The notes: a model not told the origin generated them from the letters alone. 64,000 nt of DNA from a virus (IMGVR_UViG_3300022562_001204:78551-142550), one strand, 5' to 3'. Numbered from the stretch's first letter, positions 522 through 52,946 are shown. Numbers and translations: made by a program.

Positions 522-532
522 CTGGTTCTATT

Positions 533-9216: not shown

Positions 9217-9223
9217 CTCCCAC

Positions 9224-9237: not shown

Positions 9238-9238
9238 C

Positions 9239-13044: not shown

Positions 13045-13140
13045 CGTTCACCTCCTTACTAATATAAAGGAGTTGCTGGCTATCTTTTCCTACCACACCG
13101 AGGTTTGTGTCCATACATCACTCGCCGAGACGGCATAAAG

Positions 13141-13916: not shown

Positions 13917-14306
13917 CTACGGGACTAGGTTGGTCCCGATACTCGTCCACTTCATCCGGATGTCCTCTATGTCATCCGGGGGTAAGAACCAGCATTCCTT
14001 GAGCAGCTTATCAAGGATGGGGTTTTGCTGGGAGGCAAAGAACCCCATCAGCAACTTCTGGCTCTCTTTCGAGAAGACCCCCTCTTTCAAGCAGGCCTTC
14101 ATGAAATCGTGGGAGGGTAACTGACGTCCTGTCTCGACATGGCTGATCCGGCACTTGCTGTACCCAAGGAGGGGAGCCAGACTGGGCATCGTGTGCCCGG
14201 CATCATGCCGGACCTGTCGTAGCGCTTCCCCAAAGGTCTTCGGATTATCGGGCCGTTTCGTCCCGTGCCGATAGGTAGTCTTCTTGGGGCGTTTCTTTCG
14301 AGGCAT
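13917..14306 (-). CDS. helix-turn-helix DNA-binding protein (Cro/C1-like)
   Basis: A basic N-terminus (MPRKKRPKKTT) is followed by FGEALRQVRHDAGHTMPSLAPLLGYSKCRISHVETG, consistent with an HTH_XRE fold. The stop is TAG. Confidence 0.5.
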   Translation of the reverse strand: MPRKKRPKKTTYRHGTKRPDNPKTFGEALRQVRHDAGHTMPSLAPLLGYSKCRISHVETGRQLPSHDFMKACLKEGVFSKESQKLLMGFFASQQNPILDKLLKECWFLPPDDIEDIRMKWTSIGTNLVP

Positions 14307-17865: not shown

Positions 17866-17866
17866 A

Positions 17867-17880
17867 CTCCTTTATATATG
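17867..17880 (-). promoter_or_regulatory. CATATATAAAGGAG gene-start motif before 17389..17865
   Basis: Exact ctcctttatatatg, 3' of the hairpin at 17891..17916. Confidence 0.4.
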
Positions 17881-17890
17881 TCAGTATAGC

Positions 17891-22234: not shown

Positions 22235-22239
22235 AACTA

Positions 22240-22253
22240 CTCCTTTAAATATG
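22240..22253 (-). promoter_or_regulatory. CATATTTAAAGGAG gene-start motif before 21692..22234
   Basis: Plus strand reads ctcctttaaatatg, 3' of the hairpin at 22258..22279. Confidence 0.35.
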
Positions 22254-22285
22254 TAAGGGGTAGTCCCTATGGGACTACCTTGTGG

Positions 22286-23398: not shown

Positions 23399-23404
23399 GA
23401 GCGA

Positions 23405-23417
23405 CTCCTTTATATAG
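23405..23417 (-). promoter_or_regulatory. CTATATAAAGGAG gene-start motif before 22286..23398
   Basis: Plus strand reads ctcctttatatag, 3' of the hairpin at 23427..23459. Confidence 0.35.
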
Positions 23418-23480
23418 CGCTGCTGACTCCCCTCGGACCTATACCGGGTCCGAGGGGAGTATTGGCTGACTTACTGAATG

Positions 23481-28480: not shown

Positions 28481-28486
28481 GACACA

Positions 28487-28500
28487 TTCCTTTTATATAG
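28487..28500 (-). promoter_or_regulatory. CTATATAAAAGGAA gene-start motif before 27956..28480
   Basis: Plus strand reads ttccttttatatag, 3' of the hairpin at 28514..28546. Confidence 0.35.
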
Positions 28501-28513
28501 ACGGTAAGACAAC

Positions 28514-28546
28514 ATAGACGCCATGGGACTACCCCATGGCGTCTAT
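28514..28546. terminator. stem-loop atagacgccatggg-actacc-ccatggcgtctat
   Basis: 14-bp perfect stem. Confidence 0.4.
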
Positions 28547-28550
28547 GGAC

Positions 28551-31546: not shown

Positions 31547-32407
31547 TCAGTTGACCGATTTGACCGGTGTGACACCAGGTTGGCCGATGAAGAACGTGCA
31601 GTTTGACTTGCCATCGCCGCAGATGGTGTTCATCATCTTGATGCGTTCCAGCTCAATGAACTGCTCGGTCGACATGTTCATGGCTTCACGATAGGCATTG
31701 TCCGCCGCAGCACGGCTTTCTTCGGCATCCCGTCGCCCGTCTTCCGCCAGCTTGCGCTGCTTTTCCGTCATGATGCGTTGCTGTTCCTGGGCCGTCTGGA
31801 CACGCTGCGTCAGAATGGCATCCGGGGGATTGGCTTTGCCGACGGTCACGTTCAGGAGTTTCACCGGGATCTTGGTCTCTGCCAGATAGCTAGAGAGGGA
31901 TTCGGTGATCTCGTTGTCGATGGCCTCCACGGCGGTGGTGTCGATGGCCGTCTCGTTCATGCCGTGTTTCTTGACCGCGTCACGGACACGATTGGCGAAG
32001 GCCTGTTCGACGTTCTGCTTGTACCAGTCCGGACCAAAGTCCCGGATCAGCCCGACAGAGTCAGTCACCTGCAAGCGGATGGCCGTATGGAAGTCCAGCG
32101 GCACACCGTCCGAGGTCATGATGTCCTTGAACTCGGCGTCCATCTGCTGCGGGTAGATCGTCACATACACCGATTTGGTCGAAGCCCAAGTGAAGGAACG
32201 ACCCGTTTCCACCGGGAACTTCTGGATACCGCCATGTCCAAAGAAGTACGGCTTGTCGATCAGCACCGCTTCCTGGCCCTGGTCTGGCGCCACGACCTTG
32301 AAGGAGCACAGGAGAACGATGAAGCCAATCACTGCGAGAATGGCGATACTGATATTCCGCATCGTGCAGTACTTGTCGAAGAACGACGGTTCATCATAAC
32401 GAGACAT
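31547..32407 (-). CDS. SPFH / band-7 (HflK/C-stomatin-prohibitin-like) membrane-anchored protein
   Basis: One N-terminal TM helix (ISIAILAVIGFIVLLCSF) is followed by AVLIDKPYFFG... and a C-terminal AE-rich coiled segment (QRVQTAQEQQRIMTEKQRKLAEDGRRDAEESRAAADNAYREA), typical of SPFH domains. TTCTATAAAAGGAAAGAACCAGATGTCT before the ATG. TGA stop. Confidence 0.55.
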   Translation of the reverse strand: MSRYDEPSFFDKYCTMRNISIAILAVIGFIVLLCSFKVVAPDQGQEAVLIDKPYFFGHGGIQKFPVETGRSFTWASTKSVYVTIYPQQMDAEFKDIMTSDGVPLDFHTAIRLQVTDSVGLIRDFGPDWYKQNVEQAFANRVRDAVKKHGMNETAIDTTAVEAIDNEITESLSSYLAETKIPVKLLNVTVGKANPPDAILTQRVQTAQEQQRIMTEKQRKLAEDGRRDAEESRAAADNAYREAMNMSTEQFIELERIKMMNTICGDGKSNCTFFIGQPGVTPVKSVN

Positions 32408-32414
32408 CTGGTTC

Positions 32415-32428
32415 TTTCCTTTTATAGA
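32415..32428 (-). promoter_or_regulatory. CTCTATAAAAGGAA gene-start motif before 31547..32407
   Basis: Plus strand reads ttccttttatagag. Confidence 0.3.
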
Positions 32429-32492
32429 GTCGTGAATGAAACCGGGCTGGCTTCATGTAGAGTGTATCTGACTCAGTTTTTATTAGAACGGT

Positions 32493-32906
32493 TTAGGCAG
32501 CTTTGGCAGGGTCTAGCGGTACGACCACCCAGGTATACGCCACCTCGGAGATCCCCTCCTTCGAGGGATGGGGATCCCAGACCAGGCTACCTGCCCTGTA
32601 GACGACCATGTGGTAATGTCCCCTCGAGGTAGGACCCGACGCCAGGTACAGCCCGTCGTAGACCCGATCCCCATGTTGCATGACCGCCTGATAGCCCTTG
32701 GAGAGGAACCATGTCTCGAACATCTCCCAGAACACCCCGGCATCCTTCGTGAGGTTGGCAAAGTCAGGAACCTCTGAGAGTGGAATACCCATGATGGTCG
32801 CCACAGAGGCCTGTGTACAGTTACCATCCAGCCCTTCACTGCCATGGAGAATGGTCTGGGGCTGGCAACGGTCCTGAGGAAGCAAGTAAGAAGGAGTCTC
32901 GTTCAT
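32493..32906 (-). CDS. putative papain-like (Cys/His) peptidase-fold protein
   Basis: 137 aa. GNCTQASVATIMG carries the candidate nucleophile Cys, and GHYHMVVY supplies a downstream His. Low confidence. ATGA overlap with the vWA gene. Confidence 0.35.
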   Translation of the reverse strand: MNETPSYLLPQDRCQPQTILHGSEGLDGNCTQASVATIMGIPLSEVPDFANLTKDAGVFWEMFETWFLSKGYQAVMQHGDRVYDGLYLASGPTSRGHYHMVVYRAGSLVWDPHPSKEGISEVAYTWVVVPLDPAKAA

Positions 32907-34126
32907 GTGATCGCATCCATGAGTTCGCCGATAAAGGTGGTCAGCTCAGCCGCGGTCGGGGAAGCAATGAAGATACCGTCGGTCTGTGTCGCCAGTGCGC
33001 TAAGGGACGTGGTATTGATACCATCACTGAATCCCAGGGCGTAGATGGAAATATCATTAGCCTGGCAATAGGCGATGACCTCCGCCTGGGTGTGAGTACC
33101 ATCACCTTGACCGTCCGTCATGATCAGGATCGCCCTACGGTTACCACGACCTGTCAGGTCAGTCGCTGCCTGATAGAGTGCGTCCATCACAACCGTTCCG
33201 TAGATCAGACTGGTGACCGTGGCGAGACTGGTGAGGGCGGTGGTCTTGTCATCCGTAAAGTCTTGGATCTGCGTGACGCTGCCATTCAGGGTATACAGAG
33301 CGACCTCGTCGTCATAATCCAGAGCATTGATTGCCGAGGAGGCGGCACTGCGCTCACTGGTCAATTCTGAAGAGGTCAGAGACTGACTGTTGTCAATAAT
33401 GATCGCTAGGGATGCTGGTCCGATGGGCTGGCTGCTGACGATGGTGATGTCCGCGACTGTATCGCCAGCGACACACCCGCCCCAGATCTTCGTGATACTG
33501 AGGGTAAAGTCCTCATCGACCTCCCCTGTGTTGGTATCGGCGATGATGTTGATGGGGACCAGCTTATCGCCTTCTTCCCCATCTGCCCAGACAATGGTCT
33601 GGGTCGTGGAGACGTAGTCCTCACCCTGGATGGCCGTCCCATCTGCGGTGACCACCATGGCTTTCGCTTCCCCATTGCTACCGCCAGAGCGGCGAATGGT
33701 GACATTCATGGTGCCGACATCATCAGAGGTGCTGTAAGAAGTCTCGGGAAACCCGAGCATACCCTGGTAGCTGAACTTGTTCAGTAGGGGGAAGGTGACA
33801 TTGGACAGTACTGAGATACTGACCCAGACGTTCCCCTCGGTTCCTGAGAGTCCCTGCTTGTTCTCGAGCCGGTAGGGGTGGATGTCCCCGACTTCTGAGA
33901 ACTCCGTCACGTACATCCTTAACCTTAGATACCGGCCTTCGCTGGTGTCCGTGATCTCAAACCCGTACCGCATCCCCGTACGCGGGGTAATGAATCGATA
34001 GGTGATGCTGCTGGTGTCCAGCCGAATCCTTTCGTAGAGGTAGAAATACTCGATCATGAGATCCACCAGGTACTGGGTCTCATTTTGGTCTGGGTAAAAC
34101 TTGTTAAACCCGGTCAGTGAGTACAT
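32903..34126 (-). CDS. von Willebrand factor A (MIDAS) domain protein with Calx-beta-like domain
   Basis: 407 aa. A central Calx-beta-like stretch (NVTIRRSGGSNGEAKAMVVTADGTAIQGEDYV...GEVDEDFTLSI) precedes a C-terminal vWA domain with the DxSxS MIDAS motif (LAIIIDNSQSLTSSE) and ILIMTDGQGDG. TGA stop. Confidence 0.6.
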   Translation of the reverse strand: MYSLTGFNKFYPDQNETQYLVDLMIEYFYLYERIRLDTSSITYRFITPRTGMRYGFEITDTSEGRYLRLRMYVTEFSEVGDIHPYRLENKQGLSGTEGNVWVSISVLSNVTFPLLNKFSYQGMLGFPETSYSTSDDVGTMNVTIRRSGGSNGEAKAMVVTADGTAIQGEDYVSTTQTIVWADGEEGDKLVPINIIADTNTGEVDEDFTLSITKIWGGCVAGDTVADITIVSSQPIGPASLAIIIDNSQSLTSSELTSERSAASSAINALDYDDEVALYTLNGSVTQIQDFTDDKTTALTSLATVTSLIYGTVVMDALYQAATDLTGRGNRRAILIMTDGQGDGTHTQAEVIAYCQANDISIYALGFSDGINTTSLSALATQTDGIFIASPTAAELTTFIGELMDAIT

Positions 34127-34910: not shown

Positions 34911-34917
34911 GATGCCA

Positions 34918-34931
34918 CTCCTTTATATATG
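34918..34931 (-). promoter_or_regulatory. CATATATAAAGGAG gene-start motif before 34233..34910
   Basis: Exact ctcctttatatatg. Confidence 0.4.
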
Positions 34932-35010
34932 TCGTTCAAAAAGAGAGCCGGAAATGGAAGTTCTCGTCAGGAATCGAGACCGAACCTCTCTTCGTGTTTC
35001 ACCAACTTCC

Positions 35011-35412
35011 CTAGATCTCATACCCGATGAGGTTGTGGCCGTCATCAAGGAGCTTCGCCAGTTCGATGAGCTCTCGCATGTCGATGGTGAAGTCAAAATC
35101 GATGTGCTTCAACCATTCGTCAATGTTGGCACCGAGGTGCTGCGCAAGGGCCCTGAGCACATCCGCTGGGTCGTTCGTGAAAGCGATCGAGAGGTTGAGG
35201 TACTTCCTGGCTGTTTCAACGAGGGCCTCAGTGTAACTCTCCCAATCGACAGGTGTCTCCTCATCGATGATAGCAAAGTAGTACTCATCGGGGAAGATAG
35301 GCTGCTCCTCTTCAAATGAAAATGGATTGAAGAGGGTCCGGATCATCGGGGTGATGACCGCAGGGGTACCGAAACTCAAGAGGCCTGTGGTGATGTTGGT
35401 GCTATAAGACAC
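35011..35412 (-). CDS. acidic protein, short tandem paralog of 35594..36247 (TAG stop)
   Basis: 133 aa with a GTG start. It is about 60% identical to the N-terminal 130 aa of its neighbour (GTPAVITPMIRTLF, DEYYFAII, DGHNLIGY). The TAG stop falls exactly where the longer paralog continues. Confidence 0.5.
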   Translation of the reverse strand: MSYSTNITTGLLSFGTPAVITPMIRTLFNPFSFEEEQPIFPDEYYFAIIDEETPVDWESYTEALVETARKYLNLSIAFTNDPADVLRALAQHLGANIDEWLKHIDFDFTIDMRELIELAKLLDDGHNLIGYEI

Positions 35413-35593: not shown

Positions 35594-36247
35594 TTAAGAG
35601 CTGAGGTTGAACTTCTTCAGGACCTCCTTACGGATACCCTCATCGAAGATACTGTCGGTGATGGACTTGAAGTGAGCGTCCAGCACCTTCACGACCTCGT
35701 CGAGCCCGGTACCCAGCGCAACGTCGAGGTCTTCGGCGAGCTCCTTCCCGGTGTAAGTTGAGGTTGTTCGCAGAAGGTGTTGGGAGTAGTGCTGACTCCA
35801 ACCCCCGAACCCGAGGTATTCAGGCTGAGAGCTCCACCAGCTTCCCTGAATGCTGTACCCGATGAGGTTGTGGCCGTCGTTGAGGAGCTTCGCCAGGTCA
35901 AGAACCCAGTGCATTTCGATGCTGTAGTCGAAATCGATTTTCTTCAACCATTCGTCGATGTTGACGCCGACGTGCTGCGCAAGGGCCCTGAACACATCTG
36001 CGAAGTCATCCGTGAGGGTGATCGAGAGCTTGAGGTGTTCCTTGGCTGTTTCGACGAGAGCTTCAGCATAGCCCTCCCACTCGACAGGCGTCTCCTCTCC
36101 GATGATGGCGAAATAATATTCGTCTGGGCTGATGGTCTCCCCTTCTTCAAACAAAAACGGTGTGAAGAGAGTTCGGATCATCGGGGTGATGACCGAAGGG
36201 GTGCCAAACTTAAGAGCGCCGGTGGCGGTGTTATAGCTGTCAGACAT
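35594..36247 (-). CDS. acidic protein, long tandem paralog of 35011..35412
   Basis: 217 aa. ATG after CATATATAAAGGAGTAACACC. TAA stop. Confidence 0.5.
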   Translation of the reverse strand: MSDSYNTATGALKFGTPSVITPMIRTLFTPFLFEEGETISPDEYYFAIIGEETPVEWEGYAEALVETAKEHLKLSITLTDDFADVFRALAQHVGVNIDEWLKKIDFDYSIEMHWVLDLAKLLNDGHNLIGYSIQGSWWSSQPEYLGFGGWSQHYSQHLLRTTSTYTGKELAEDLDVALGTGLDEVVKVLDAHFKSITDSIFDEGIRKEVLKKFNLSS

Positions 36248-36254
36248 GGTGTTA

Positions 36255-36268
36255 CTCCTTTATATATG
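36255..36268 (-). promoter_or_regulatory. CATATATAAAGGAG gene-start motif before 35594..36247
   Basis: Exact ctcctttatatatg, 3' of the hairpin at 36274..36307. Confidence 0.4.
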
Positions 36269-36273
36269 TCAGC

Positions 36274-36307
36274 ATACCCCCACGAGACCTATTCTCGTGG
36301 GGGTATG
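36274..36307. terminator. stem-loop catacccccacgaga-cctatt-ctcgtgggggtatg
   Basis: 14-bp perfect stem. Confidence 0.4.
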
Positions 36308-36311
36308 AATG

Positions 36312-36788
36312 TCAGTAGAAACTTTGAGGGTTCTTGAAGCTCTGGTAGTTCAGCAACATCGCAGCGGCAGCATAGACCACCAGGATCCATCCAGACCCGG
36401 CTAATGTCAGGACTCCTGCCAGGACAACCAGGGTATTTCGCATGTACCGTGTCGGGGAATTGTACAGACAGATCACGGAGACTGCCGTCACCATGGCTAC
36501 CACGCGGGCGGTAATGTCCATCGCCACGGCCAGGGGTCCCCAGATGTCTTCACCCACCGTTTGGACCAGAAGCCAGGGAACCATAGCCAGGATCACGGTT
36601 GTCGTGATGAACATCCCGGCGCTGCTGTACAGGGTGGACACCCCGTAGCATCGCTCGTCCAGATAGGCTGACATGGCAGATTTCTGGGAGAAGACGTACT
36701 GGCGCCCGTAGGCCCAGGTCATCAGGACTCCCGACAGGAACAACACCAGCGAGAAACCATTCAACAGAAGCTCAAGAAGCGTGAACAT
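36312..36788 (-). CDS. small polytopic membrane protein 1 of 8 (158 aa)
   Basis: About four hydrophobic helices. TACTATAAGGGAGTATCGCC before the ATG. TGA stop. Confidence 0.5.
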   Translation of the reverse strand: MFTLLELLLNGFSLVLFLSGVLMTWAYGRQYVFSQKSAMSAYLDERCYGVSTLYSSAGMFITTTVILAMVPWLLVQTVGEDIWGPLAVAMDITARVVAMVTAVSVICLYNSPTRYMRNTLVVLAGVLTLAGSGWILVVYAAAAMLLNYQSFKNPQSFY

Positions 36789-36813
36789 GGCGATACTCCC
36801 TTATAGTAATCGC

Positions 36814-37302
36814 TTATGATTCTTTCCACGTGGCGGATTGCCAGCGGAACAGTTGGAGCCGTCCGAGGATGAGGACGGCGATGCTAATGAAGATCAAAGC
36901 GGCGTTAAACGCCAGTAACAAAACCGAACATAACACAACAGCGATTCGACCTTGGCGGGAGAGGTCGAAGTTCAAGCCGACCACAATCCCCGCAATGAGA
37001 GTGGGGATGAGTCGACTCCCCAGAAGCACAGCCTCGACCACGGGGTCGTAGGCCCGCCCACCCAGCAGCTTCCCTGTTGCGTAACACAGTGCGGTCAGAA
37101 ACACCATAGCCCCACACAGCTTGGAGTGGTCCTCCACGATTCGACCAGTCCCCAAAGTCACGTGACCTTCCTTGGTCCGATAAGGGTCTCTCGACACTAC
37201 GTAGGTCATGGTCAGTCCATAGAGCCAGTGAAGCTCAATATAGAGCACCATAGACGCCAGGACTGTGTAGACCACGTAGCTGTTCGAGAAACACTCGTTC
37301 AT
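36814..37302 (-). CDS. small polytopic membrane protein 2 of 8 (162 aa)
   Basis: About four hydrophobic helices. GGAGGGG SD. TAA stop. Confidence 0.5.
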   Translation of the reverse strand: MNECFSNSYVVYTVLASMVLYIELHWLYGLTMTYVVSRDPYRTKEGHVTLGTGRIVEDHSKLCGAMVFLTALCYATGKLLGGRAYDPVVEAVLLGSRLIPTLIAGIVVGLNFDLSRQGRIAVVLCSVLLLAFNAALIFISIAVLILGRLQLFRWQSATWKES

Positions 37303-37303
37303 G

Positions 37304-37780
37304 TCACCCCTCCGTTGTTTGCTTTACCTTACGCCCAATGAGCCCCAAGAACACCACAGCAATGATGGCATTGAGCCAGCTGTATCCCAGTAACCCTATC
37401 GCACAGAACGTTACCAGAATTACCATTCGATTCGGGACTGCCAGGGTGACGTACCAAACCCAGACAATGATGGTCGCGATGCAAGCGATCAGAAGTATGG
37501 TGCTGTACTCGGCAGCCAGTAGAAACCCAGGACTTCCCACGGTAGGATGACCGTAATCAATGACGAGGTAGATCGCGAAATACCCCACGATACAGGCAAG
37601 TAACTGAGGGGCTTTCTTGTATATGTTCTCCCAGCACGCCTGCCTTTGTTTCTCTGGGAATACGACGAGGCTAAACATGTTGTCGAGTCCCGCTTTCAGA
37701 GTGGCTTTCGCTGTAACCAGTGCCGATATGACAAGCAGCAAGCAGAAGAAGTTGACGCTATAATCAAGAACGATGTTCAT
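37304..37780 (-). CDS. small polytopic membrane protein 3 of 8 (~158 aa)
   Basis: The track start lies inside the upstream gene. The ATG at 37780 (MNIVLDYS) follows GGGGAG. TGA stop. Confidence 0.5.
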   Translation of the reverse strand: MNIVLDYSVNFFCLLLVISALVTAKATLKAGLDNMFSLVVFPEKQRQACWENIYKKAPQLLACIVGYFAIYLVIDYGHPTVGSPGFLLAAEYSTILLIACIATIIVWVWYVTLAVPNRMVILVTFCAIGLLGYSWLNAIIAVVFLGLIGRKVKQTTEG

Positions 37781-38243
37781 TTTGCTCCCCAGATCTAAGT
37801 TTTGCGTCGTCTTCACACGACCACGCGAGCACACAGAACCCGACCCCTACCACCAGTACGGTCAGATTCAAGTTAAACATTATCAACGCCCCGACCAGGA
37901 AGACGAACCGAATGAAACGGAACGTCATGAGGTACATGGAGAGAATCGACGCTACCGTGACCCCTGAGAGTAGGTATGCCGACAGTACGGCCACCCTACG
38001 GACGCCCTCGCTCCCGTACCCGGTACCCAGAAGGTTGAGCATCCCAACAGCCGCCAGTGGTAAGAGCATGGATGCGAGAAGCGACCAGCGGGCGTCACTG
38101 ACCAGGGAGTATCCAGGGATACGGAGGTTGAACCGCCCCAACCAGGGTTCTTCTGGAACCAGGTAGTACCGGGTCGCTAGGTATGTAAAGCTCAATGAGC
38201 TCATGAGCAGCATCAAGTACAGCAGGTTAGCGATACTGTCCAT
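37764..38243 (-). CDS. small polytopic membrane protein 4 of 8 (159 aa)
   Basis: The ATG directly abuts the TAG of the upstream gene, in the same frame. AAAAAAAGGAACCGATAG precedes it. TGA stop. Confidence 0.5.
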   Translation of the reverse strand: MDSIANLLYLMLLMSSLSFTYLATRYYLVPEEPWLGRFNLRIPGYSLVSDARWSLLASMLLPLAAVGMLNLLGTGYGSEGVRRVAVLSAYLLSGVTVASILSMYLMTFRFIRFVFLVGALIMFNLNLTVLVVGVGFCVLAWSCEDDAKLRSGEQNEHRS

Positions 38244-38660
38244 CTATCGGTTCCTTTTTTGTGTTGCGAGGTTGTTTTCGATAAACAGGATGGGTAAAAC
38301 GACGGAGAGAGCGATCCCTACGGGGTTACCCAACCACCCAAGAATCACACCAGCCGGCATGAGGAGTATTTTGGTCGAGGTTTTAACCTCGAATTCAGAA
38401 CCCACGACAGCGATACTGACCAAGAATCCCTGAACACACGTCACGATGCCAACGAAGTGAAGGAAAGGCGTGTGTCCTGCCAGGTCGGTGACCAGTGCGA
38501 TGGCCAGTAGTGGAAGACCACCCACTAAGAGACAAACGACCTGATGTTTGTTACGCCGAACCTCAAAGTTGAAGAAGATCCCGTTGAGGACCACCCAGAA
38601 CGTTCCAAGCAGACTCACTGCTTGGAACGTCAGAAGTACCATGCTTTCTTGCTGGGTCAC
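38244..38660 (-). CDS. small polytopic membrane protein 5 of 8 (138 aa), TAG stop
   Basis: The stop is TAG at 38244..38246, immediately followed in frame by the next ATG. Confidence 0.5.
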   Translation of the reverse strand: MTQQESMVLLTFQAVSLLGTFWVVLNGIFFNFEVRRNKHQVVCLLVGGLPLLAIALVTDLAGHTPFLHFVGIVTCVQGFLVSIAVVGSEFEVKTSTKILLMPAGVILGWLGNPVGIALSVVLPILFIENNLATQKRNR

Positions 38661-39091
38661 GAGATCTTTGACCTGGTCTTGAAGTTCTCCATACTGACGG
38701 CTATCAGCATCGCTGATGCGATGAGCGCCAGTGTCACGGGATTCGAACCCGCTGCGAAGTGGGTGTAGTAGGACAGGGGCAGGCTAGCGATAACCAGCCC
38801 CGCACCGACGATCCGAAGACCCCGACTGTAGACACATCTGACGGTAAGTAGGGCCAACATGGTCGCGAACGAAAGGGAAATGCTGAACGCACCCAGCATC
38901 AGCGACAAGTTGGCAGCTGGGTCCTTGACCTGAAGGTAAATCAGCCAGTAGGCAGGATACAGGCCAACAACGACCAGCGCGGACAGCACGATGTTGGGTT
39001 TTGAGATCTGGGGACTGATGATCGCCATGGAGACCACGCTGACAAGAGCCAGCATGGCGACACCCAGTGCGAGGTGATGAAGATCATTCAT
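38657..39091 (-). CDS. small polytopic membrane protein 6 of 8 (~144 aa)
   Basis: The track ORF has a long Arg/Pro-rich N-terminal extension that is not believable. The ATG at 39091 (MNDLHHLALGV) follows CCAAGGAGTACCAGC. TGA stop. Confidence 0.5.
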   Translation of the reverse strand: MNDLHHLALGVAMLALVSVVSMAIISPQISKPNIVLSALVVVGLYPAYWLIYLQVKDPAANLSLMLGAFSISLSFATMLALLTVRCVYSRGLRIVGAGLVIASLPLSYYTHFAAGSNPVTLALIASAMLIAVSMENFKTRSKIS

Positions 39092-39512
39092 GCTGGTACT
39101 CCTTGGATTTGGTCCAACCGAAAAACACAACAATACAGACACAGACAAGGACGGGGACTGGGATGCCCTTGATGGCAAACACCAGGGAGACCCCCAGCCC
39201 AATGACTCGATACACAACAGCCAGCCGCTCTCGCGTGGCGAATACGGCAACCGCCATGGCGCCGCTGGTCCAGATACCGACCTGGGTCGTGGCCGACGCC
39301 AGCGAGGCGACCCCTGTACCGAGGTCATACATCCCACCCAGAGCCATCAAGGGACTCAGTACGCCCCCTATGTTCAGCCGTTCGATGATTGTGAACCTGG
39401 GTTTCTGGCTGGCGGGTCTCAAAATGTAAAAGACGGTCAGATAGATCAAGCTCGCAGTCATCACCACCAGCAGCACAGCATCTATCACGAAGAAGAGGGC
39501 GGTATCGTCCAT
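39084..39512 (-). CDS. small polytopic membrane protein 7 of 8 (~142 aa)
   Basis: The ATG at 39512 (MDDTALFFVID) follows CAAAAGGAAACTCACC. TGA stop. Confidence 0.5.
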   Translation of the reverse strand: MDDTALFFVIDAVLLVVMTASLIYLTVFYILRPASQKPRFTIIERLNIGGVLSPLMALGGMYDLGTGVASLASATTQVGIWTSGAMAVAVFATRERLAVVYRVIGLGVSLVFAIKGIPVPVLVCVCIVVFFGWTKSKEYQHE

Positions 39513-39988
39513 GGTGAGTTTCCTTTTGTCAGGCACTTACGGTTCTTGAAAGACCAGGCTGTAAGGCCCAGTAGTGGAAAAGGTGCCGCAATGAAGAGAT
39601 CGTTACACTGGGTGAACGCCAGTACGCCCATCATGATCAGACGGGCATACGTAGGGAGGGGTAACCAGGCATTGAACAGAATCGTGATCCCGATCGCCAC
39701 CGTCAGGGCAGAGATGTTTCGAACGATGTGTTCACAACCGGATACCCACGCCTCGCTGTGGCTAATGCTGAGCCAGCTGAACGCCCCAGCGGTGGTAATC
39801 AACTCGAAGAACCCAGACCCTCCGATCAGCAGCAGCACCATGACCCAGAGGTTCTTTTTGAACATGGGTTTCGATAAAGGGTAGTAGATGCCCTCCAGGA
39901 ACATCCGACAGCCATAGATGAAGATACCCCCCTGCATGAGCAGGAGGGTATAACACATCACTTCACGCACATACAGAGAGATCACCAC
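39485..39988 (-). CDS. small polytopic membrane protein 8 of 8 (167 aa)
   Basis: GTG start after AGGAGGACCCAA. TGA stop. Confidence 0.5.
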   Translation of the reverse strand: MVISLYVREVMCYTLLLMQGGIFIYGCRMFLEGIYYPLSKPMFKKNLWVMVLLLIGGSGFFELITTAGAFSWLSISHSEAWVSGCEHIVRNISALTVAIGITILFNAWLPLPTYARLIMMGVLAFTQCNDLFIAAPFPLLGLTAWSFKNRKCLTKGNSPWTIPPSSS

Positions 39989-40470
39989 TTGGGTCCTCCT
40001 GAGATGGGTTCATACGTGACCACAGGGCCGATGAGATCCCGAGGGGTCACTACTGGAGTGACCCTGAGACGCATCTGGCATGCCGTATACAGCCTGAAGT
40101 AGATCAGCTCCTGCGGGGAGGTCCCATGAAGATCCCACCCGTAGAGGTGAGCCTTCACAAAGAACGCTGAGAGATTCTTACGATAGACCCCGATGGGACC
40201 ATCGTTCTTCATCAGCATGATGCCATTGTACTCGTCGCTCTGGATCCACTCATGGCCATGGCGGTCGATATACGTCGGCGTAGGGCTGATCGCGGTCAGC
40301 CCCTCGTTTGCGGTTCCTTCGCGGTAGGCCACTGTCAACATCAGTGGCAACTCGGCCAGGTTTCCCATCCCCTCGCAGGGGAATTCGTTATACTTCTGCC
40401 CTTTGAAAGCATAGAAGTATTCCGGTCTGGCCCGATGGAGTTTGTTACCCAGGATTCTGCGAAGGTTCAT
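39982..40470 (-). CDS. hypothetical protein (~162 aa)
   Basis: The ATG at 40470 (MNLRRILGN) follows TGTCATAAAGGGAACCAAC. TGA stop. Confidence 0.5.
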   Translation of the reverse strand: MNLRRILGNKLHRARPEYFYAFKGQKYNEFPCEGMGNLAELPLMLTVAYREGTANEGLTAISPTPTYIDRHGHEWIQSDEYNGIMLMKNDGPIGVYRKNLSAFFVKAHLYGWDLHGTSPQELIYFRLYTACQMRLRVTPVVTPRDLIGPVVTYEPISGGPKW

Positions 40471-40521
40471 GTTGGTTCCCTTTATGACAACATAGAGGAG
40501 AGGCATCCCTCTCCCGAAGAA

Positions 40522-40764
40522 TTAGAAGACGATCACCGTGGGGTGTCGTTGCTGTGCGTCCCGTTCGGCAGCCTTTATGGCCGCTCTGTCGGTCTGATGC
40601 CCTGACTTGGGGCGCCAGTCCTTGTCTTGTTCGGTTTTGACGTAGAGAACAAACCCTGTACTCAGATCGTCATTCTTATCGAAGGCCTCGTCTGTATCAA
40701 TGATCCGATACGCTACGTGGTCGTTACTTTTGCACTTGAACGTCGAAACGATTCTTTGTTCCAT
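40522..40764 (-). CDS. hypothetical protein (80 aa)
   Basis: TAA stop. A stem-loop lies upstream at 40786..40809. Confidence 0.4.
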   Translation of the reverse strand: MEQRIVSTFKCKSNDHVAYRIIDTDEAFDKNDDLSTGFVLYVKTEQDKDWRPKSGHQTDRAAIKAAERDAQQRHPTVIVF

Positions 40765-41040
40765 AGTCCCTGTTCACCTATCAAATCCCCAGGACCTCTA
40801 GGTCCTGGGGCTATGCCATCTATTTTATTTTCTGGCGGGAAACCCTAGCCGAATCTAGGGCACCCGGTTATGCTAAGGAAACCCCCAGGTACAGTACCCG
40901 TACCCGGGGTCGGGCTTTAGTAGGTGGCGTTCCCAGGCGAGGGAAATGCGAGGGACTGGCAAAGTTTCATAATAGCCATTCGGGGCGCAGGCCAGGCTCG
41001 CAAGTTGCCACCTCAGGAAGAGGAGCTCAAGCATCGAGGT

Positions 41041-43247: not shown

Positions 43248-43505
43248 TCAGCTGGCCAGGTAGACCCGCTTCAATGTCGAGGTTTCACCTACATTACTGT
43301 ACATGGTCACCAACTTCTGGGTGGTCAAGTCGTAATAAAGATAGGCTTTTGATGTGTCCCCAGTAACGTCATTCTGATCGGTGATGGTATACACCCCTGA
43401 TCCAGAGCTCAACGGAACCATGGTAAAACGTTTCACTGTGAAACTCACTGGGTTCGGAGCGATGGTGATGTCCTGAACCAGCGAAGTATAACCGAGCGTA
43501 TCCAT
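43248..43505 (-). CDS. small protein downstream of fibre gene, copy 1 (candidate fibre assembly/chaperone)
   Basis: 85 aa. It is about 65% identical to 44561..44818 (shared MDTLGY...GDTSKAYLYYDLTTQ.LVT.YSNV.ETSTLKRVYLA) and is coupled to the upstream gene through GGAGGTGAT-ATG. Confidence 0.5.
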   Translation of the reverse strand: MDTLGYTSLVQDITIAPNPVSFTVKRFTMVPLSSGSGVYTITDQNDVTGDTSKAYLYYDLTTQKLVTMYSNVGETSTLKRVYLAS

Positions 43506-43506
43506 A

Positions 43507-44553
43507 TCACCTCCAGGGTCCGGTGATGTCGATCATGGCGTATCCTTGACCGACCCCTACATTCGAACTCGAATTGGTAACCCAGGTGCTTGTGTTGATA
43601 TAGCTAGATATCCCAACGATCATGAAGACCCGGTCTGTCATCCCTGTCACGTTAGTGAGGAGAATGTCGGTACCTGGCGACGCAGTAAGTTGGTCGTATA
43701 ATCCAGGGACAGCACCTACAATACGAGTGGTGGCCTCGGTTGGGATCTCTACCACATACACGGGTCTCGCAATGACACCAACGCCTTGTGAGTTCGGAAC
43801 TCCTAGTGAGTACCGTCGATATCCAAGACCGTTGTTGAGATAATCATCAATGTCAGTTGATGTGTTAATTAAACCTCTTGCAAAATCACTGGTGAGGTGC
43901 GCGTAGGGATTTACGCTAGAGCCGTCATACAGTTTCCAGGTCCTAGCGACTCTAGAATTAGTGCTGCTATTACTGATATAGGAAAGTCGCCCGTACCGAT
44001 TGTAAACACCCGGGAGGTTAGCTGCCGGGTCGAGATCGGTAATATCCCCATAAGTAGTTGCTGCATATGGGTGATCCCCAAAGGCAACCAAATCCCCGAA
44101 GAAGTACCCAGCGGCGAGTGTTGGGACGTCGGCATCCGGGTATGTGAAGAGATGAAAGCAATACTCGTCAGCGAATAACTTCCAGGGTCTCGTGGTCGTT
44201 GAGAGCTCGTCTGACTTGGTGATCGGAGACCCCTGGGTGTAGAGGGCGAGACCGTAGGCATTGGTGCCTGTGTCGATATCGGTCATCGTCTCATACGCGA
44301 TCCAACCCGCTTTCATGGCAGTATACGTGGCAGAAAATGCCGCGTCATCCTGAACACGGAGGTAGTGACGGTAACCCAGCAACGGTCTGAAGACCGCTAC
44401 GTTCGTCCCGGTGAACTCCTCGGACCAGCCGACAGGAGACTTTGACCCATACCCGTCTATCAGGCAGGCCCTGAGCACATCGAGTAGCGTACCGGCGGTA
44501 CCGCTGAGGGTAGGCGCGTCAGTGTCATCAGAATAATAGGCATATACCGTCAT
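43507..44553 (-). CDS. tail-fibre / receptor-binding-like protein, copy 1
   Basis: 348 aa. The N-terminal ~150 aa is near-identical to that of 44820..45863, with a divergent centre and a conserved C-terminal IDITGPWR. TGA stop. Confidence 0.55.
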   Translation of the reverse strand: MTVYAYYSDDTDAPTLSGTAGTLLDVLRACLIDGYGSKSPVGWSEEFTGTNVAVFRPLLGYRHYLRVQDDAAFSATYTAMKAGWIAYETMTDIDTGTNAYGLALYTQGSPITKSDELSTTTRPWKLFADEYCFHLFTYPDADVPTLAAGYFFGDLVAFGDHPYAATTYGDITDLDPAANLPGVYNRYGRLSYISNSSTNSRVARTWKLYDGSSVNPYAHLTSDFARGLINTSTDIDDYLNNGLGYRRYSLGVPNSQGVGVIARPVYVVEIPTEATTRIVGAVPGLYDQLTASPGTDILLTNVTGMTDRVFMIVGISSYINTSTWVTNSSSNVGVGQGYAMIDITGPWR

Positions 44554-44560
44554 AGTCGCT

Positions 44561-44818
44561 TCATCCTGCTAGGTAAACACGTTTAAGTGTGGAGGTCTCA
44601 GCGACGTTGCTGTAGATCGTCACCAGTTGTTGGGTGGTCAGGTCATAGTAGAGGTACGCCTTGGACGTATCTCCGGTCCCTGAGTCCACGTCCTTGGCCG
44701 AGAAAGCCAGTGATCCATCCGCCAACGGCACCACGGTCGGCACCTTTCTCAGAAATTCCACGGGACACTCTGACTGGAGTGGTTGGATAAAGAGTGAGTC
44801 GTACCCAAGCGTATCCAT
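44561..44818 (-). CDS. small protein downstream of fibre gene, copy 2
   Basis: 85-aa paralog of 43248..43505. Confidence 0.5.
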   Translation of the reverse strand: MDTLGYDSLFIQPLQSECPVEFLRKVPTVVPLADGSLAFSAKDVDSGTGDTSKAYLYYDLTTQQLVTIYSNVAETSTLKRVYLAG

Positions 44819-44819
44819 A

Positions 44820-45863
44820 TCACCTCCAGGGTCCGGTGATGTCGATCATGGCTGAACACTCCGCATTCGTTAAAGAGGCAGAGCCCTCCATAGCCCAATT
44901 ACTAGCATTGTAATAACCGCTGACCCCTATTGTCAGAAACACCCGGTCCGTCATACCGGTCACATTGGTAATCAAGGTTCGGTGAGCTGGGGCTACAGTG
45001 AGTTGATCATAGAGTCCAGGAATCGCACCAGTAATTCGACTCGTAGCCTCTGTAGGGGTCTCCACCGCGTAAACGGGTCTTGCAATGACGCCTACACCGC
45101 TCGAGTTTGGAGTACCTATCATCCAACGACGTTTACCCAGCGAGCTTTCAACGTTATAGATTGCGTTCACTGAGCTAGTCACATATCCTCGGACGAACGT
45201 ACTGGTCAGCTTTATGGGCATATTAACGGTCGTCCCATCAAAATTCCCAGCTGCCCTAGCCCAGAACATCCCATCCCCAGTCGCACTCAGTGAACACATG
45301 GGCGAGTACCGGTTATAGACAACCGGCTGCCCCGTGGGGTCTCCATCAACGACATCGCCGTAAAGCAGTGTTGAATACAGATGTCCGCCATAAGCGACGG
45401 CATCTCCAAAGAAGTATCCAGCCCCAGAAGTTGGATTATCAGCATCTGGATAGGTAAACAGGTGGAAACAATACTCATCACCAACGAGGATCCAGGGACG
45501 TGTCGTGGTAGAGAGTTCATCCGACTTGCTGATGGTCGACCCTTGGGTGTACGTGGCGAGACCGAAGGCGTCGGTGCCTGTGTCGATATCGGTCATGGAC
45601 TGATACCCGATCCACACGGCCTTCATCTCGGTATAGGTGGTCGATACAGCACCATCATCCTGGATTCTCAGGTAATACCGACGTCCTTGAGGAGCACGAA
45701 ACACCGAGACGTTCGTCCCAGTGAACTCCTCCGACCAGCCCAGAGGGTCGATGCTGCCATACCCGTTGACCAGGCAGGCTTTCAGAACGTCCAGAAGGGC
45801 ACCAGCGGTTCCGGACAGTACCGGAGCCCCGGAGTCGTCGGAGTAGTAGACGCGTACAGTCAT
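44820..45863 (-). CDS. tail-fibre / receptor-binding-like protein, copy 2
   Basis: 347-aa paralog of 43507..44553. Confidence 0.55.
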   Translation of the reverse strand: MTVRVYYSDDSGAPVLSGTAGALLDVLKACLVNGYGSIDPLGWSEEFTGTNVSVFRAPQGRRYYLRIQDDGAVSTTYTEMKAVWIGYQSMTDIDTGTDAFGLATYTQGSTISKSDELSTTTRPWILVGDEYCFHLFTYPDADNPTSGAGYFFGDAVAYGGHLYSTLLYGDVVDGDPTGQPVVYNRYSPMCSLSATGDGMFWARAAGNFDGTTVNMPIKLTSTFVRGYVTSSVNAIYNVESSLGKRRWMIGTPNSSGVGVIARPVYAVETPTEATSRITGAIPGLYDQLTVAPAHRTLITNVTGMTDRVFLTIGVSGYYNASNWAMEGSASLTNAECSAMIDITGPWR

Positions 45864-45898: not shown

Positions 45899-46369
45899 CT
45901 ATATGATCTTGAGGTCTTTCATACGAACATACACGGAGAGTTCCGACATCTGAAAGATGGTGCCTAACTCTCTGGCGCTATGGGTCCCGTTCTTGATTCG
46001 GTTCTTCAGATGCGTGGAGGGGATCATCAGCGCTAGCGCAAAGGCGTTAGCCTCTGCTTCCATGGGGTCCACGGTGTTGCTGGAGAGATGGTAGGCCATC
46101 TCCTTCGGGGGATTGATGTGTTTCAGCTCGATATGGCCGAGGCAGTGAGCGATGACGAATCGCTGTCGAGTGGGGATCAGCCTGGGGTTGACGTAGATGA
46201 CCTCACGTCCCATGGACGTGATGGCGTGGCCTTGGTAGCGATCTCGATCCTCTTCTGGGAGGTCGATGACCTGGATATGGCGAGCCCTGGCGATCACTTC
46301 AGGTTCTACGGGAAGTGCCCGGTCCTGCCAGTGTGTTGCGAGTATGGCGTTAGCCAGTGCCTGGAACAT
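45899..46369 (-). CDS. ImmA/IrrE-family (DUF955) metallopeptidase-like protein with HCxxH in place of HExxH
   Basis: FVIAHCLGHIELKH aligns with the ImmA HEL(G)H zinc motif, but Cys replaces the catalytic Glu. EANAFALALMIP matches the downstream E..AN.FA..LLMP ligand motif. The stop is TAG, with a backup TAA 6 codons on. Confidence 0.5.
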   Translation of the reverse strand: MFQALANAILATHWQDRALPVEPEVIARARHIQVIDLPEEDRDRYQGHAITSMGREVIYVNPRLIPTRQRFVIAHCLGHIELKHINPPKEMAYHLSSNTVDPMEAEANAFALALMIPSTHLKNRIKNGTHSARELGTIFQMSELSVYVRMKDLKII

Positions 46370-49643: not shown

Positions 49644-49648
49644 AGTGA

Positions 49649-49661
49649 CTCCTTATATATA
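49649..49661 (-). promoter_or_regulatory. TATATATAAGGAG gene-start motif before 49200..49643
   Basis: Plus strand reads ctccttatatata, 3' of the hairpin at 49666..49693. Confidence 0.35.
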
Positions 49662-49665
49662 CAGC

Positions 49666-49693
49666 ATACAGTCCGGGTCTATCCCGGGCTGTA
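49666..49693. repeat. second copy of stem-loop element acagtccgggtctatcccgggctgtatg
   Basis: Near-identical to 17353..17380. Confidence 0.5.
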
Positions 49694-49701
49694 TGTATGA
49701 C

Positions 49702-50847
49702 TCAGCCCCAGGGGCCGTTCTTCATGGTCAGCCGCATGGCGTTGCCGAGGGTATTGCCCTCTTCACGCACCTTCTTCTTGCGTTTGATCTCGTCAGCCCG
49801 ACGAATGCTGACTTCCTTGGTGAGAAGGTCCACCAGGTCGATGTCCTTCATGGTCTCGCCCACCTGCTCGGCCGTCAGGAGCTTCTCGAGCTTCTTGCTG
49901 ACTTCCTTGGTGAGTTGTTCGATCAGGCGTTCCGAGACGGTCTTCTCGGTCAGGGTGACCAGTAGTTCCGAGTTCTGGTCTGTCGGACTGGGTACGGCCA
50001 CCTTTATCTTGAAGAGGTCGCCAAGGGAGGATGCCTGCTCGGCGGCCCTCTGAGCAACGAAGTCCATCACCTCTTTGACATATTCCTTTCCAAAAGCTGG
50101 GATGGCGGCTTCCTGGAGAGGCTCTGAGGGGGACGCGATATTCAAGAACGGTGTGTACTTGGGTTCACTGAACTGGATCTGCTCGCCCTGACGCGGATGG
50201 ATGTGGTCACTGAGGGTGATCGAGATCGGTGCCGTTTGCTTGGTCTGGTTCAATCCAGGATACGGTGTTCCGGTCTGACTCACCAACTGACCTGTATGGG
50301 GGTCTCGGGCCACCTCGGTCCTGTTCTGATCAAATGGCCCGTACGTCCCCACGTACCCGGCATTTGAGTCACGGACTTCTACGACAGGCATCGAGTTTTT
50401 CAGCAAGTTTCTGACATGAAAGGAAATCTTGTCCAGGCCGATGAGGTCCAGGTTGGTTTTGGAAACGGTATCTTCGTGTGTCATGGGGGGAAGTTCCATT
50501 GGGGAGAGGGCAATGCTCATGAGACGATCGAAACTGTACAACCGGCCAGAGAAGCTCATGACCTGGTCTCGAACTTCCAGAAACTTCCTGGAAGCGAACG
50601 CCTTTGGCCAGGCCAATACTTCAGCCAGATTGTGGCCATGGACCAGATGGTTGATCACCGGGTCGTTGGTCGGGCCATTGCCCTCGATTGAGCCGGGGGG
50701 ACTCTTGAGTTCGAGCGACTTGAACTTTGCAATCGTCTTGGCTTGCTCGGCCTTGTGGTTGTGACGAGCGAAGATCGACTCGAGCAGACTCAGGTTCGAG
50801 GCCTTCCAGATACCTTGGTCCCCTGAATCAAAGAATTTCAAACCCAT
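49702..50847 (-). CDS. hypothetical protein (381 aa), possibly virion-associated
   Basis: Long ORF at the proximal end of the structural block. TGA stop. Confidence 0.5.
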   Translation of the reverse strand: MGLKFFDSGDQGIWKASNLSLLESIFARHNHKAEQAKTIAKFKSLELKSPPGSIEGNGPTNDPVINHLVHGHNLAEVLAWPKAFASRKFLEVRDQVMSFSGRLYSFDRLMSIALSPMELPPMTHEDTVSKTNLDLIGLDKISFHVRNLLKNSMPVVEVRDSNAGYVGTYGPFDQNRTEVARDPHTGQLVSQTGTPYPGLNQTKQTAPISITLSDHIHPRQGEQIQFSEPKYTPFLNIASPSEPLQEAAIPAFGKEYVKEVMDFVAQRAAEQASSLGDLFKIKVAVPSPTDQNSELLVTLTEKTVSERLIEQLTKEVSKKLEKLLTAEQVGETMKDIDLVDLLTKEVSIRRADEIKRKKKVREEGNTLGNAMRLTMKNGPWG

Positions 50848-51301: not shown

Positions 51302-52021
51302 TTAACCGCGACGGAAGAGTGCGATGTCATACCCCAGTGTTTCTGTACCGTCACCCAGAGCGTCGATCAGTGGTTGATTCACTTCTTGACCGTTATGCTC
51401 GGCTAGGTGCACACTGGTCAAATTGACGACCACTTCGCCCAGGTCCCTGCGAAGCAGTACCTCGACATTCAACTGAATAAAGTGCACGTGATGATCACAT
51501 ACCAGTGAGCGCAATCGAGGGTCTGTCAGCAGGCTACCATTTATCTGACGGGTCTTGGCGGATAGACCGACTACCACATAGTCGAAAGTATCGGACTCAA
51601 GCGAAAAGACATTGGTGAACATATCGGGCATCGAAGAACGGGCACTGCTGAATGCGACGACATTGTCACCGATCTTCATGTAGATCGTCATAAAGGCCCC
51701 ACACGTCATCAGCCCGTCAATAGACGAATGAAGTCTATCCCGGGCGGTGTCCTCGGTCATGGACACCGCGAGCATGTCGTATTTGACACCGAACTTCATG
51801 GGGGCGGTCGTTACGACATGGCCCGAGTCCAGTCTGACTCGCTTGGCCGGGACAAACGACTCATCAACGAAGAGGTGTCTGGTGGATTCGGTGACGACGG
51901 GGACGCAGAGCCTTGGGAGGCTTCGATTGAAGGGGAGCCGTTCGGTCGTATCTTGAAGTGACAACGGATCTTTCAGCGCATCCGCCAGGTTAGTTTCGCT
52001 GAACTGGATTGTCTGGGCCAT
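51302..52021 (-). CDS. hypothetical protein (239 aa)
   Basis: GAATAAGGAATAACA before the ATG. TAA stop. Confidence 0.5.
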   Translation of the reverse strand: MAQTIQFSETNLADALKDPLSLQDTTERLPFNRSLPRLCVPVVTESTRHLFVDESFVPAKRVRLDSGHVVTTAPMKFGVKYDMLAVSMTEDTARDRLHSSIDGLMTCGAFMTIYMKIGDNVVAFSSARSSMPDMFTNVFSLESDTFDYVVVGLSAKTRQINGSLLTDPRLRSLVCDHHVHFIQLNVEVLLRRDLGEVVVNLTSVHLAEHNGQEVNQPLIDALGDGTETLGYDIALFRRG

Positions 52022-52340: not shown

Positions 52341-52946
52341 TCACAAAGATTCCGCGTCGGTCACGGCGCTAGCTTCATTGGTGCCGCCACCCACCACCGT
52401 GACATCCCCGCTATTGCTGGTGTCAGTATCGCCCGATGTATCATCCAGGCTGGTGTCGGTGTCGACATCGGTCGTGATGAGATCATCATCACTGGTCATA
52501 TCGCTATCCGAGAGCGTCCCTGGGAAGGTGTACTCTGATCCAGCGAAGGTGGGTTCCACTGCAAGCAGGGTATTGATGTCATCCCAGGTCTTGTAGGGGT
52601 TGATGTAGTAGATGAAGGGGAGACCTTGCGAAGCCAGGTCGTATCTCACGACAGCCAGGCAGTACGTGGGGTCTTCCAGCTGGGTTTGTCGAGTTGACGC
52701 ACGGACGACGATCTGATAACCATCCATGGTCAGCTCGGGTGTCACGAGTACCGACTCGTCAGTCAGGAGGTCTTGAGTGTAGACCGCCTTGACGATGATG
52801 TATCGAGCCGGCATCATTGACAACTCGCCGATGGTCCAGCTACCTGGGAGTGGGAGGGCGTTACCCTCCTCATCCAGGGCGTCTGGGAAAGGGAGTACCG
52901 CACGAGCGGCATCCTCATCTGTGAATCGCAGCAGTGCGTCGAACAT
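52341..52946 (-). CDS. hypothetical protein with Asp/Thr/Ser-rich acidic C-terminus (201 aa)
   Basis: TGA stop. Confidence 0.5.
   Translation of the reverse strand: MFDALLRFTDEDAARAVLPFPDALDEEGNALPLPGSWTIGELSMMPARYIIVKAVYTQDLLTDESVLVTPELTMDGYQIVVRASTRQTQLEDPTYCLAVVRYDLASQGLPFIYYINPYKTWDDINTLLAVEPTFAGSEYTFPGTLSDSDMTSDDDLITTDVDTDTSLDDTSGDTDTSNSGDVTVVGGGTNEASAVTDAESL

Follow-up and report, generated by a model that had tools for sequence, protein, structure and literature searches.

An array of eight small genes for predicted inner-membrane proteins in a phiKZ-like jumbo phage

Few phage genes are as poorly understood as those for small membrane proteins, of which the handful studied so far control the entry of rival phages, the timing of lysis, or host defences. 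Imm and Sp of the virulent phage T4 are small membrane proteins that stop the DNA entry of superinfecting phages, and class I holins such as lambda S, with three helices and about 100 amino acids (aa), are normally encoded beside an endolysin. The locus described here is a run of eight small genes, m1 to m8, on the minus strand at 36312..39988 of a 64-kb stretch of a phiKZ-like jumbo phage genome (IMGVR_UViG_3300022562_001204:78551-142550, hereafter the window); the genes are numbered against transcription, so that m8 comes first. The closest functional precedent is SieA of phage P22, which has 162-164 aa and 3-4 predicted helices, lies in the inner membrane and, acting within it, blocks the conduit through which related phages deliver their DNA. 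Its sequence types are less than 30% identical and have a common topology, and its conserved cytoplasmic motif is FxRYPxEAxxFNK (PMC10883804).

The array resembles SieA in that its products are polytopic inner-membrane proteins of about 160 aa with no soluble domain, as predicted from hydropathy and charge. The likeness does not extend to the sequence, as hhalign comparison of the eight-sequence profile with P22 SieA gave a probability of 0.07% (E 0.72) and the SieA motif is absent from all eight proteins, nor to the organisation, SieA being the product of one prophage-expressed gene and the array a jumbo-phage operon of eight genes. With about 83 and 97 aa and 1-2 helices, T4 Imm and Sp fall well below the array proteins in size; each is encoded by a single gene, and the array has no Pfam match to such families. 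With class I holins the array proteins share a small size, a predicted N-out/C-in arrangement and a charged or basic cytoplasmic C-terminal tail; they differ in having five hydrophobic segments, 138-167 aa, eight copies, no holin family match and no lysin within about 10 kb.

Runs of small membrane-protein genes are known from other systems. The cytomegalovirus US12 family consists of ten adjacent multi-spanning membrane genes whose seven-spanning products are recognisably homologous. Like it, the array is a contiguous, co-oriented set of similar-sized polytopic genes, very weakly similar to one another, within the genome of a large virus; however, it belongs to another virus realm and host, and homology is marginal and limited to four of its eight members. 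In phages PRD1 and PM2, operons of small membrane proteins provide the products that build the internal membrane of the virion. These too contain several consecutive genes for small integral-membrane proteins in one phage operon, but the present phage has phiKZ-type head and tail genes and gives no indication of a lipid-containing virion. Membrane immunity genes against pore-forming bacteriocins and polymorphic toxins also form arrays, in which small, diverged polytopic proteins each neutralise a different membrane-acting partner. Tandem order, small size, high divergence and polytopic character are common to these arrays and to ours (for orphan toxin/immunity modules, cf. PMC3150448). The array differs from them in that no toxin gene or fragment accompanies it, no family match was found, and its carrier is an apparently virulent jumbo phage.

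All eight are real genes with native codon usage. The sequence-only reading had listed eight consecutive minus-strand open reading frames (ORFs) of 138-167 aa between 36312 and 39988, and each was recovered exactly there. In the order of transcription, m8 (39485..39988, 167 aa) begins with GTG behind an AGGAGG Shine-Dalgarno sequence (SD), and the polytopic membrane protein that it encodes ends in a basic tail (+4). It is followed by m7 (39084..39512, 142 aa, polytopic, overlapping m8 by 28 nucleotides, nt), m6 (38657..39091, 144 aa, with five clearly separated hydrophobic segments and an 8-nt overlap with m7) and m5 (38244..38660, 138 aa, whose GTG start overlaps the stop of m6 in a GTGA, and which ends in TAG). 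The last four genes, all coding for polytopic membrane proteins, are m4 (37764..38243, 159 aa), m3 (37304..37780, 158 aa, overlapping m4 by 17 nt), m2 (36814..37302, 162 aa) and m1 (36312..36788, 158 aa), the final gene of the array. Public gene calls were available from identical contigs of JGI metagenome 3300015263 (31.9 kb) and of the Logan assembly of SRR14699976. The JGI caller reported all eight genes with identical lengths (167/142/144/138/159/158/162/158 aa, m8 to m1), and the Logan caller seven, with m5 replaced by a 74-aa antisense ORF.

The coding signal agrees with these calls. GC content at third codon positions (GC3) is 0.59-0.74 in the array against 0.65 +/- 0.05 in 24 long genes of the window, and under a synonymous-codon model trained on the same 24 genes the called frame scored best among the six frames for each of the eight genes. 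Plus-strand ORFs also span the array, for example one of 264 aa at 39090..39884. Because the called minus-strand frames carry the best codon scores and native GC3, these long ORFs are to be regarded as antisense shadows. They are hydrophilic, as expected opposite NTN-rich coding sequence, and the positive plus-strand AT skew at 36-40 kb fits with NTN-rich coding on the minus strand. The claim that every gene carries its own SD held for seven of the eight, where the SD is clear, and failed for m5, which has none; an alternative ATG for m5 at 38642 also lacks a good SD. Translation of m5 probably relies on the GTGA in which its start overlaps the m6 stop. This gene is the weakest call of the eight, having been missed by the Logan caller and having a GC3 of 0.59 and the smallest codon-score margin.

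The array proteins are almost wholly hydrophobic (grand average of hydropathy, GRAVY, 0.70-1.03 across m1-m8, with 1.01 for m3), and hydropathy showed no soluble domain in any of them. About four helices per protein had been counted earlier; this has to be corrected to five segments each, as the last hydrophobic stretch of 30-40 residues is a two-helix hairpin with a G/N/P turn. By hydropathy and charge the eight have a common layout, which begins with a neutral or acidic N-terminus of 0-9 residues, helix 1, a basic loop (+1 in m6 and +2 to +5 in the other seven) and helix 2, and continues with a short loop, again neutral or acidic, helix 3, one or two Arg/Lys residues, the 30-40-residue hydrophobic stretch and a basic tail of 6-24 residues carrying a charge of +1 to +4. 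By the positive-inside rule this distribution of charge leads to a five-segment, N-out/C-in inner-membrane topology, and each protein is thus predicted from its sequence to insert in the host cytoplasmic membrane in that orientation. An AlphaFold2 (AF2) model of m1 has five helices at low confidence (predicted local distance difference test, pLDDT, 61.7), and the AF2 structure predictions are too poor for use.

Elsewhere such proteins are scarce in this DNA, as only about three membrane-protein ORFs occur in the remaining 60 kb of the window. When 11 membrane genes are placed randomly among about 77, the chance of an eight-gene run is 5e-7 (union bound). Eight consecutive, similar-sized, five-segment membrane proteins in one coupled unit are uncommon.

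The arrangement of the genes suggests that the array and the two soluble orphans preceding it form one co-transcribed and translationally coupled unit of ten genes (40764..36312), with a strong hairpin at either end. Upstream lie a terminator-like hairpin on the minus strand (40883..40909, 12-bp stem), likely the 3' end of the preceding transcription unit, and an intergenic region of 276 nt (40765..41040) with two more hairpins and an AT-rich stretch. The probable first gene, judged by its position only, is an 80-aa soluble orphan ORF (40522..40764, minus strand). It is followed on the same strand by a 174-aa soluble orphan ORF (39982..40506), the stop of which overlaps the m8 start by 7 nt; a homolog of this ORF was not found in 5.8 billion clusters, and its AF2 model (pLDDT 35) was unusable. 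Between consecutive genes, from the 174-aa ORF by way of m8 down to m1, the spacings are -7, -28, -8, -4, 0, -17, +1 and +25 nt. Five nt past the m1 stop starts a minus-strand hairpin with a perfect 15-bp stem and a 5-nt loop (36273..36307; free energy -28.8 kcal/mol, z = -6.0 against shuffles), and this is the probable 3' boundary of the unit.

Directly after this hairpin comes the motif GACATATATAAAGGAGT, and then the start of a gene for a 217-aa acidic protein. In the window this 17-mer is found eight times with no more than 3 mismatches, against 0.07 expected (530..546, 9222..9238, 13057..13073, 17866..17882, 22239..22255, 23404..23420, 34917..34933 and 36254..36270), always just upstream of a start codon and usually behind a strong hairpin. 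The motif is probably a phage-specific promoter or leader joined to the terminator of the preceding gene. Looser TATATAA(A)GGA forms were also seen before other genes, for example at 28481..28550, 32408..32492, 46370.. and 49644..49701. Many genes of this phage are flanked by such short units of hairpin plus motif, and the ten-gene stretch has none inside it, except that in the 25-nt spacer before m1 the recurrent TATATAAAGGAG-type motif is present in degenerate form. The ten-gene unit would accordingly belong to a different regulatory class from its neighbours.

The sequence-only reading knew of no standard phage module made up of eight such genes, and every sequence-based comparison with known modules that we ran came back negative as well. 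Nothing significant was found for m1-m8 in Pfam, PHROGs, NCBIfam or PADLOC, or for the eight-sequence profile among PDB sequences. A phmmer search with m1 against 5.8 billion clusters returned only m1 itself, and a full HMMER search with the eight-sequence profile against 1.84 billion representatives (about 15 billion proteins) returned at E<=0.001 the eight alone, this profile being weak enough that very remote relatives of single members could escape it. At 90% identity each array protein is alone in its own cluster and is present on at most three contigs. As both the profile search and the clusters return only the eight themselves, the array appears to be unique to this phage in current public data. 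All three contigs that carry it are identical, those from JGI matching the window at 100%, and a Logan 'variant' of m8 differs solely in how the GTG start is written. Consequently, a test of the ratio of nonsynonymous to synonymous substitution, or any other test of selection, is impossible.

Comparison at the level of the locus gave the same picture. Neither megablast of 35-41 kb nor tblastn of the concatenated eight had a match in GenBank phages, and in IMG/VR no relatives turned up for m1, for the acidic protein of 217 aa, for the 174-aa protein upstream of m8 or for a downstream VWA protein. None of the synteny anchors succeeded: relatives were found for a neighbouring SPFH gene, but in unrelated phages with no membrane-protein array. 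In the first 50 kb of Serratia phage Moabite, a nucleus-forming jumbo phage among the closest ligase matches, there is one isolated 4-helix protein and no array, a sample too small to gauge how rare such arrays are. No comparable phage array was found in the literature.

Searches for lysis, toxin and immunity functions were equally negative. It had been noted that no ATPase, nuclease or lysin interrupts the array; this is correct, and no such family, nor a spanin, was found near it. None of the eight matched a holin family of Pfam, PHROGs or NCBIfam at E<=1, no lysin was found within about 10 kb, and lysin and spanin families had no match among ORFs of at least 120 aa between about 26.5 and 53 kb, ORFs below 120 aa being mostly unscanned. 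The two findings that would have spoken against the sequence-only reading, absence of hydrophobic helices or a holin or spanin family match with an endolysin nearby, were not made: the helices are present, and no such match or endolysin was found. Among the immunity families of Pfam and NCBIfam the best hit was BlpZ (E 0.039, not significant), and no toxin-like gene was seen among the scanned neighbours.

Tentatively, we read the eight as a co-expressed inner-membrane set for superinfection exclusion or anti-defence, a possibility suggested by analogy that we place first among the readings but hold with little confidence. The eight would be a lineage-specific set derived at least partly from tandem duplication followed by rapid divergence, and would sit in the cytoplasmic membrane of the host with the short N-terminus in the periplasm, five segments in the membrane, and the basic loops and C-terminal tail in the cytoplasm. 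There they might occupy or block inner-membrane sites, whether those for the entry of rival-phage DNA or those of membrane-anchored defence effectors of the host, in a mode like that of P22 SieA and T4 Imm, each a single small protein of the inner membrane, and several diverged copies would widen the target range. Because the eight lack a soluble domain, their action must be inside the membrane, either by binding membrane proteins or by altering the bilayer. Their extreme lineage specificity is what is expected of fast-evolving conflict genes and was counted in favour of this proposal. If it were true, the one-gene SieA/Imm model would be extended to a multi-gene arsenal.

Whether the eight are diverged paralogs or distinct proteins was a choice that the sequence-only reading had left standing. 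BLASTP among the eight gave weak alignments only, several of them collinear and near full length. When residues were permuted inside blocks of 7-10, which keeps the hydropathy profile, and all 28 pairs were compared with such shuffles, m1-m2, m1-m4 and m1-m6 each stood out at p ~0.003 and m3-m5 at p 0.03, the others being at chance. Three pairs thus fall at p<0.01 against 0.28 expected, with a Fisher combination of 0.005 in which the pairs are not independent, and no pair passes the Bonferroni correction for 28 tests. One of four hhalign splits stands out (z 3.2), namely the one that separates m1 from m2, m4 and m6. Length and topology are common to all eight (138-167 aa, five-segment positive-inside pattern), a weakly discriminating trait. 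The genes are contiguous on one strand, and neighbouring duplicates are 71%, 61% and 63% identical; tandem duplication has clearly been active in the neighbourhood of the array. Common descent of m1, m2, m4 and m6 is plausible on these sequence comparisons, and marginally supported.

Several results weigh against the proposal of a duplicated exclusion or anti-defence set. With leave-one-out hidden Markov models the omitted member never rose above its decoys, and the mean correlation of hydropathy profiles within the eight (r 0.50) is close to that with unrelated small membrane proteins (0.43-0.44). Shared hydropathy barely exceeds that of unrelated proteins and therefore cannot carry the argument for paralogy, which is unproven for m3, m5, m7 and m8. 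There is no homology to SieA at the hhalign probability of 0.07%, no match to families of any kind in Pfam, PHROGs or NCBIfam, and specifically none to Imm-type or superinfection-immunity families in Pfam or PHROGs; the best PADLOC hit, PDC-M02B, was not significant (E 0.036 for m6). The identity of all array contigs leaves no relatives in which conservation or diversifying selection could be seen. Finally, the exclusion systems described so far use one or two proteins, not eight.

No computation made here discriminates among exclusion or anti-defence, a membrane complex, control of lysis, and membrane remodelling. The second of these, that the eight are subunits of one hetero-oligomeric inner-membrane assembly such as a channel, a transporter-like complex or a scaffold, with coupling fixing their proportions, is in our opinion unlikely but deserves to be taken seriously. 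Every junction has a stop/start overlap or near-abutment, the single unit is free of internal terminator and promoter elements, and the similar size and predicted topology would suit a pseudo-symmetric ring or bundle; in several members, polar or charged residues also occur within hydrophobic segment 3 (for example MDITAR in m1 and EAVLLGSR in m2). However, tight packing is normal in phage genomes and so is not specific, the proteins have no similarity to any known multi-subunit membrane complex, and the unit includes no ATPase or soluble partner of known type.

Rather less is to be expected of a reading in which the eight, perhaps with the two soluble orphans, form an inner-membrane device with no known counterpart, be it a hetero-oligomeric channel or scaffold or a series of diversified membrane-embedded blockers, each directed at another entry route of competing phages or another membrane defence effector of the host. 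If true it would mean a new class of phage membrane system, defined by a family of five-helix proteins that has expanded. A new mechanism has so far not been shown, and by analogy with described systems the array would be a viral tandem gene family or a set of accessory membrane proteins specific to this phage lineage, not something categorically new. In jumbo phages orphan genes are to be expected, and the array is the less surprising for it. At present it is a well-defined candidate for expression work and not a discovery of function. If functional, an eight-protein operon would be a compact test case for the manipulation of the host membrane by large phages, and the array could show membrane-protein families expanding and diverging beyond recognition.

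It is also conceivable, if similarly improbable, that the array merely accreted, and consists of unrelated or barely functional orphan membrane ORFs that have no joint function in a permissive accessory region. Homology is indeed not demonstrable among most of the eight, no homologs exist anywhere in the searched databases, and the region from 34 to 43 kb is made up of orphans. A run of eight is on the other hand very unlikely by random placement (5e-7, as calculated above), native codon usage, intact frames and a consistent positive-inside charge are found in all the genes, and their tight coupling argues for selection on co-expression.

We are doubtful that one or more of the eight serves in the control of lysis, as a holin, antiholin, pinholin or other regulator of lysis timing. 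Small N-out/C-in membrane proteins with basic C-terminal tails do resemble class I holins in outline, and in jumbo phages lysis genes are frequently scattered, so that the missing adjacent lysin is not decisive. Against this, neither the eight nor the ORFs scanned between about 26.5 and 53 kb gave a holin, spanin or endolysin match, 138-167 aa and five membrane segments put these proteins at or past the upper limit for holins, and eight in a row would be without precedent.

An equally poor prospect is that the array, together with an SPFH/Band-7 scaffold and a VWA/Calx-beta protein, reorganises the inner membrane of the host during infection, for example into vesicles or assembly platforms. 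The phage is phiKZ-like, and both of these genes lie downstream on the same strand, the SPFH gene at 4 kb (31547..32407) and the VWA gene at 2 kb (32903..34126). But these are in separate units, each with its own hairpin and promoter-like motif, there is no hint of curvature-inducing or amphipathic elements in the eight, and no membrane-protein array was seen near related SPFH genes at four IMG/VR loci. These relatives are 45-46% identical and belong to unrelated phages, three of the loci being near-identical. Their contigs differ widely in GC content (66% and 45%), and for this reason the SPFH gene appears to be a mobile accessory gene.

The idea that the eight are non-genes, either spurious ORFs or pieces of one decayed large transporter gene, can practically be set aside: one of the two callers missed m5, which has the weakest codon signal, but the called frame is the best of six with native GC3 throughout, an SD precedes seven, the callers reported eight (JGI) and seven (Logan), no similarity to any transporter was found in Pfam or NCBIfam, and each ORF has the complete N-out/C-in pattern.

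Among the neighbouring genes, a tandem pair encoding acidic proteins had been placed upstream of the array. The pair exists (35011..35412 and 35594..36247, minus strand; 71% identical over 133 aa, both orphans) but it lies downstream, on the 3' side, with the 15-bp hairpin and a promoter-like motif of its own between it and the array. In the downstream copy, which is truncated, a TAG stands in place of CAG and, three codons on, a TGA in place of TGG, after which DNA similarity stops. Extension of this short paralog by stop-codon recoding was considered and rejected, as the TGA replaces TGG three codons past the TAG and the similarity ends. On the other side of the array, upstream, there is a duplicated module of two minus-strand genes (43248..44553 and 44561..45863), coding for proteins of 348/347 aa and 85 aa that are 61% and 63% identical. 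The 348/347-aa protein matches the PHROG 'tail assembly protein'. Relatives of the 348-aa copy, at about 30% identity, were only in siphoviruses of Xanthomonas, Stenotrophomonas and Xylella, possibly a clue to the range of hosts or to horizontal acquisition.

The phage carries a tRNA of the amber-suppressor type (13178..13252, minus strand) with anticodon CUA, labelled Pyl by ARAGORN and scoring 72.7 bits with the Rfam tRNA model. TAG is the rarest stop in the window, used by 6 of 69 genes. One of them is m5, whose TAG (38244..38246) abuts the ATG of m4 in the same frame, such that suppression would yield an m5-m4 fusion of 298 aa; in the other five genes the gain would be 3-14 residues only. 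As m4 would have its predicted topology inverted in such a fusion, the m5-m4 arrangement may be a coincidence.

The window is part of a phiKZ-like jumbo phage and contains three paralogs of the phiKZ internal head protein family (1235..2635 on the minus strand, 2671..4044 and 4058..5257 on the plus strand), a partial match to PhiKZ_MCP and a tail protein; an NAD-dependent DNA ligase and the tRNA are also present. Apart from the two plus-strand paralogs, all clear genes of the window are on the minus strand. The longest contig encoding the array proteins has 257,149 bp. No close relative was found among GenBank phages or in IMG/VR, with no megablast match and a ligase identity of at most 33%, and neither the 784-aa tail protein nor the ligase had a relative above about 33% identity. 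Almost every gene between 34 and 43 kb is an orphan.

A minus-strand ORF of 239 aa (51302..52021) covers only positions 124-357 of the 635-position PhiKZ major capsid profile (E 1.7e-11), and could be a split, interrupted or truncated capsid-like gene. The ORFs on either side (52341..52946 and 49702..50847) lie in other frames, and neither has a Pfam match. Upstream of the array the minus strand encodes a Peptidase_M78 (IrrE-like) protein (45899..46369), and an HTH_31 protein is encoded on the same strand at 13917..14306. These two domains are typical of regulatory switch pairs; here they are 32 kb apart.

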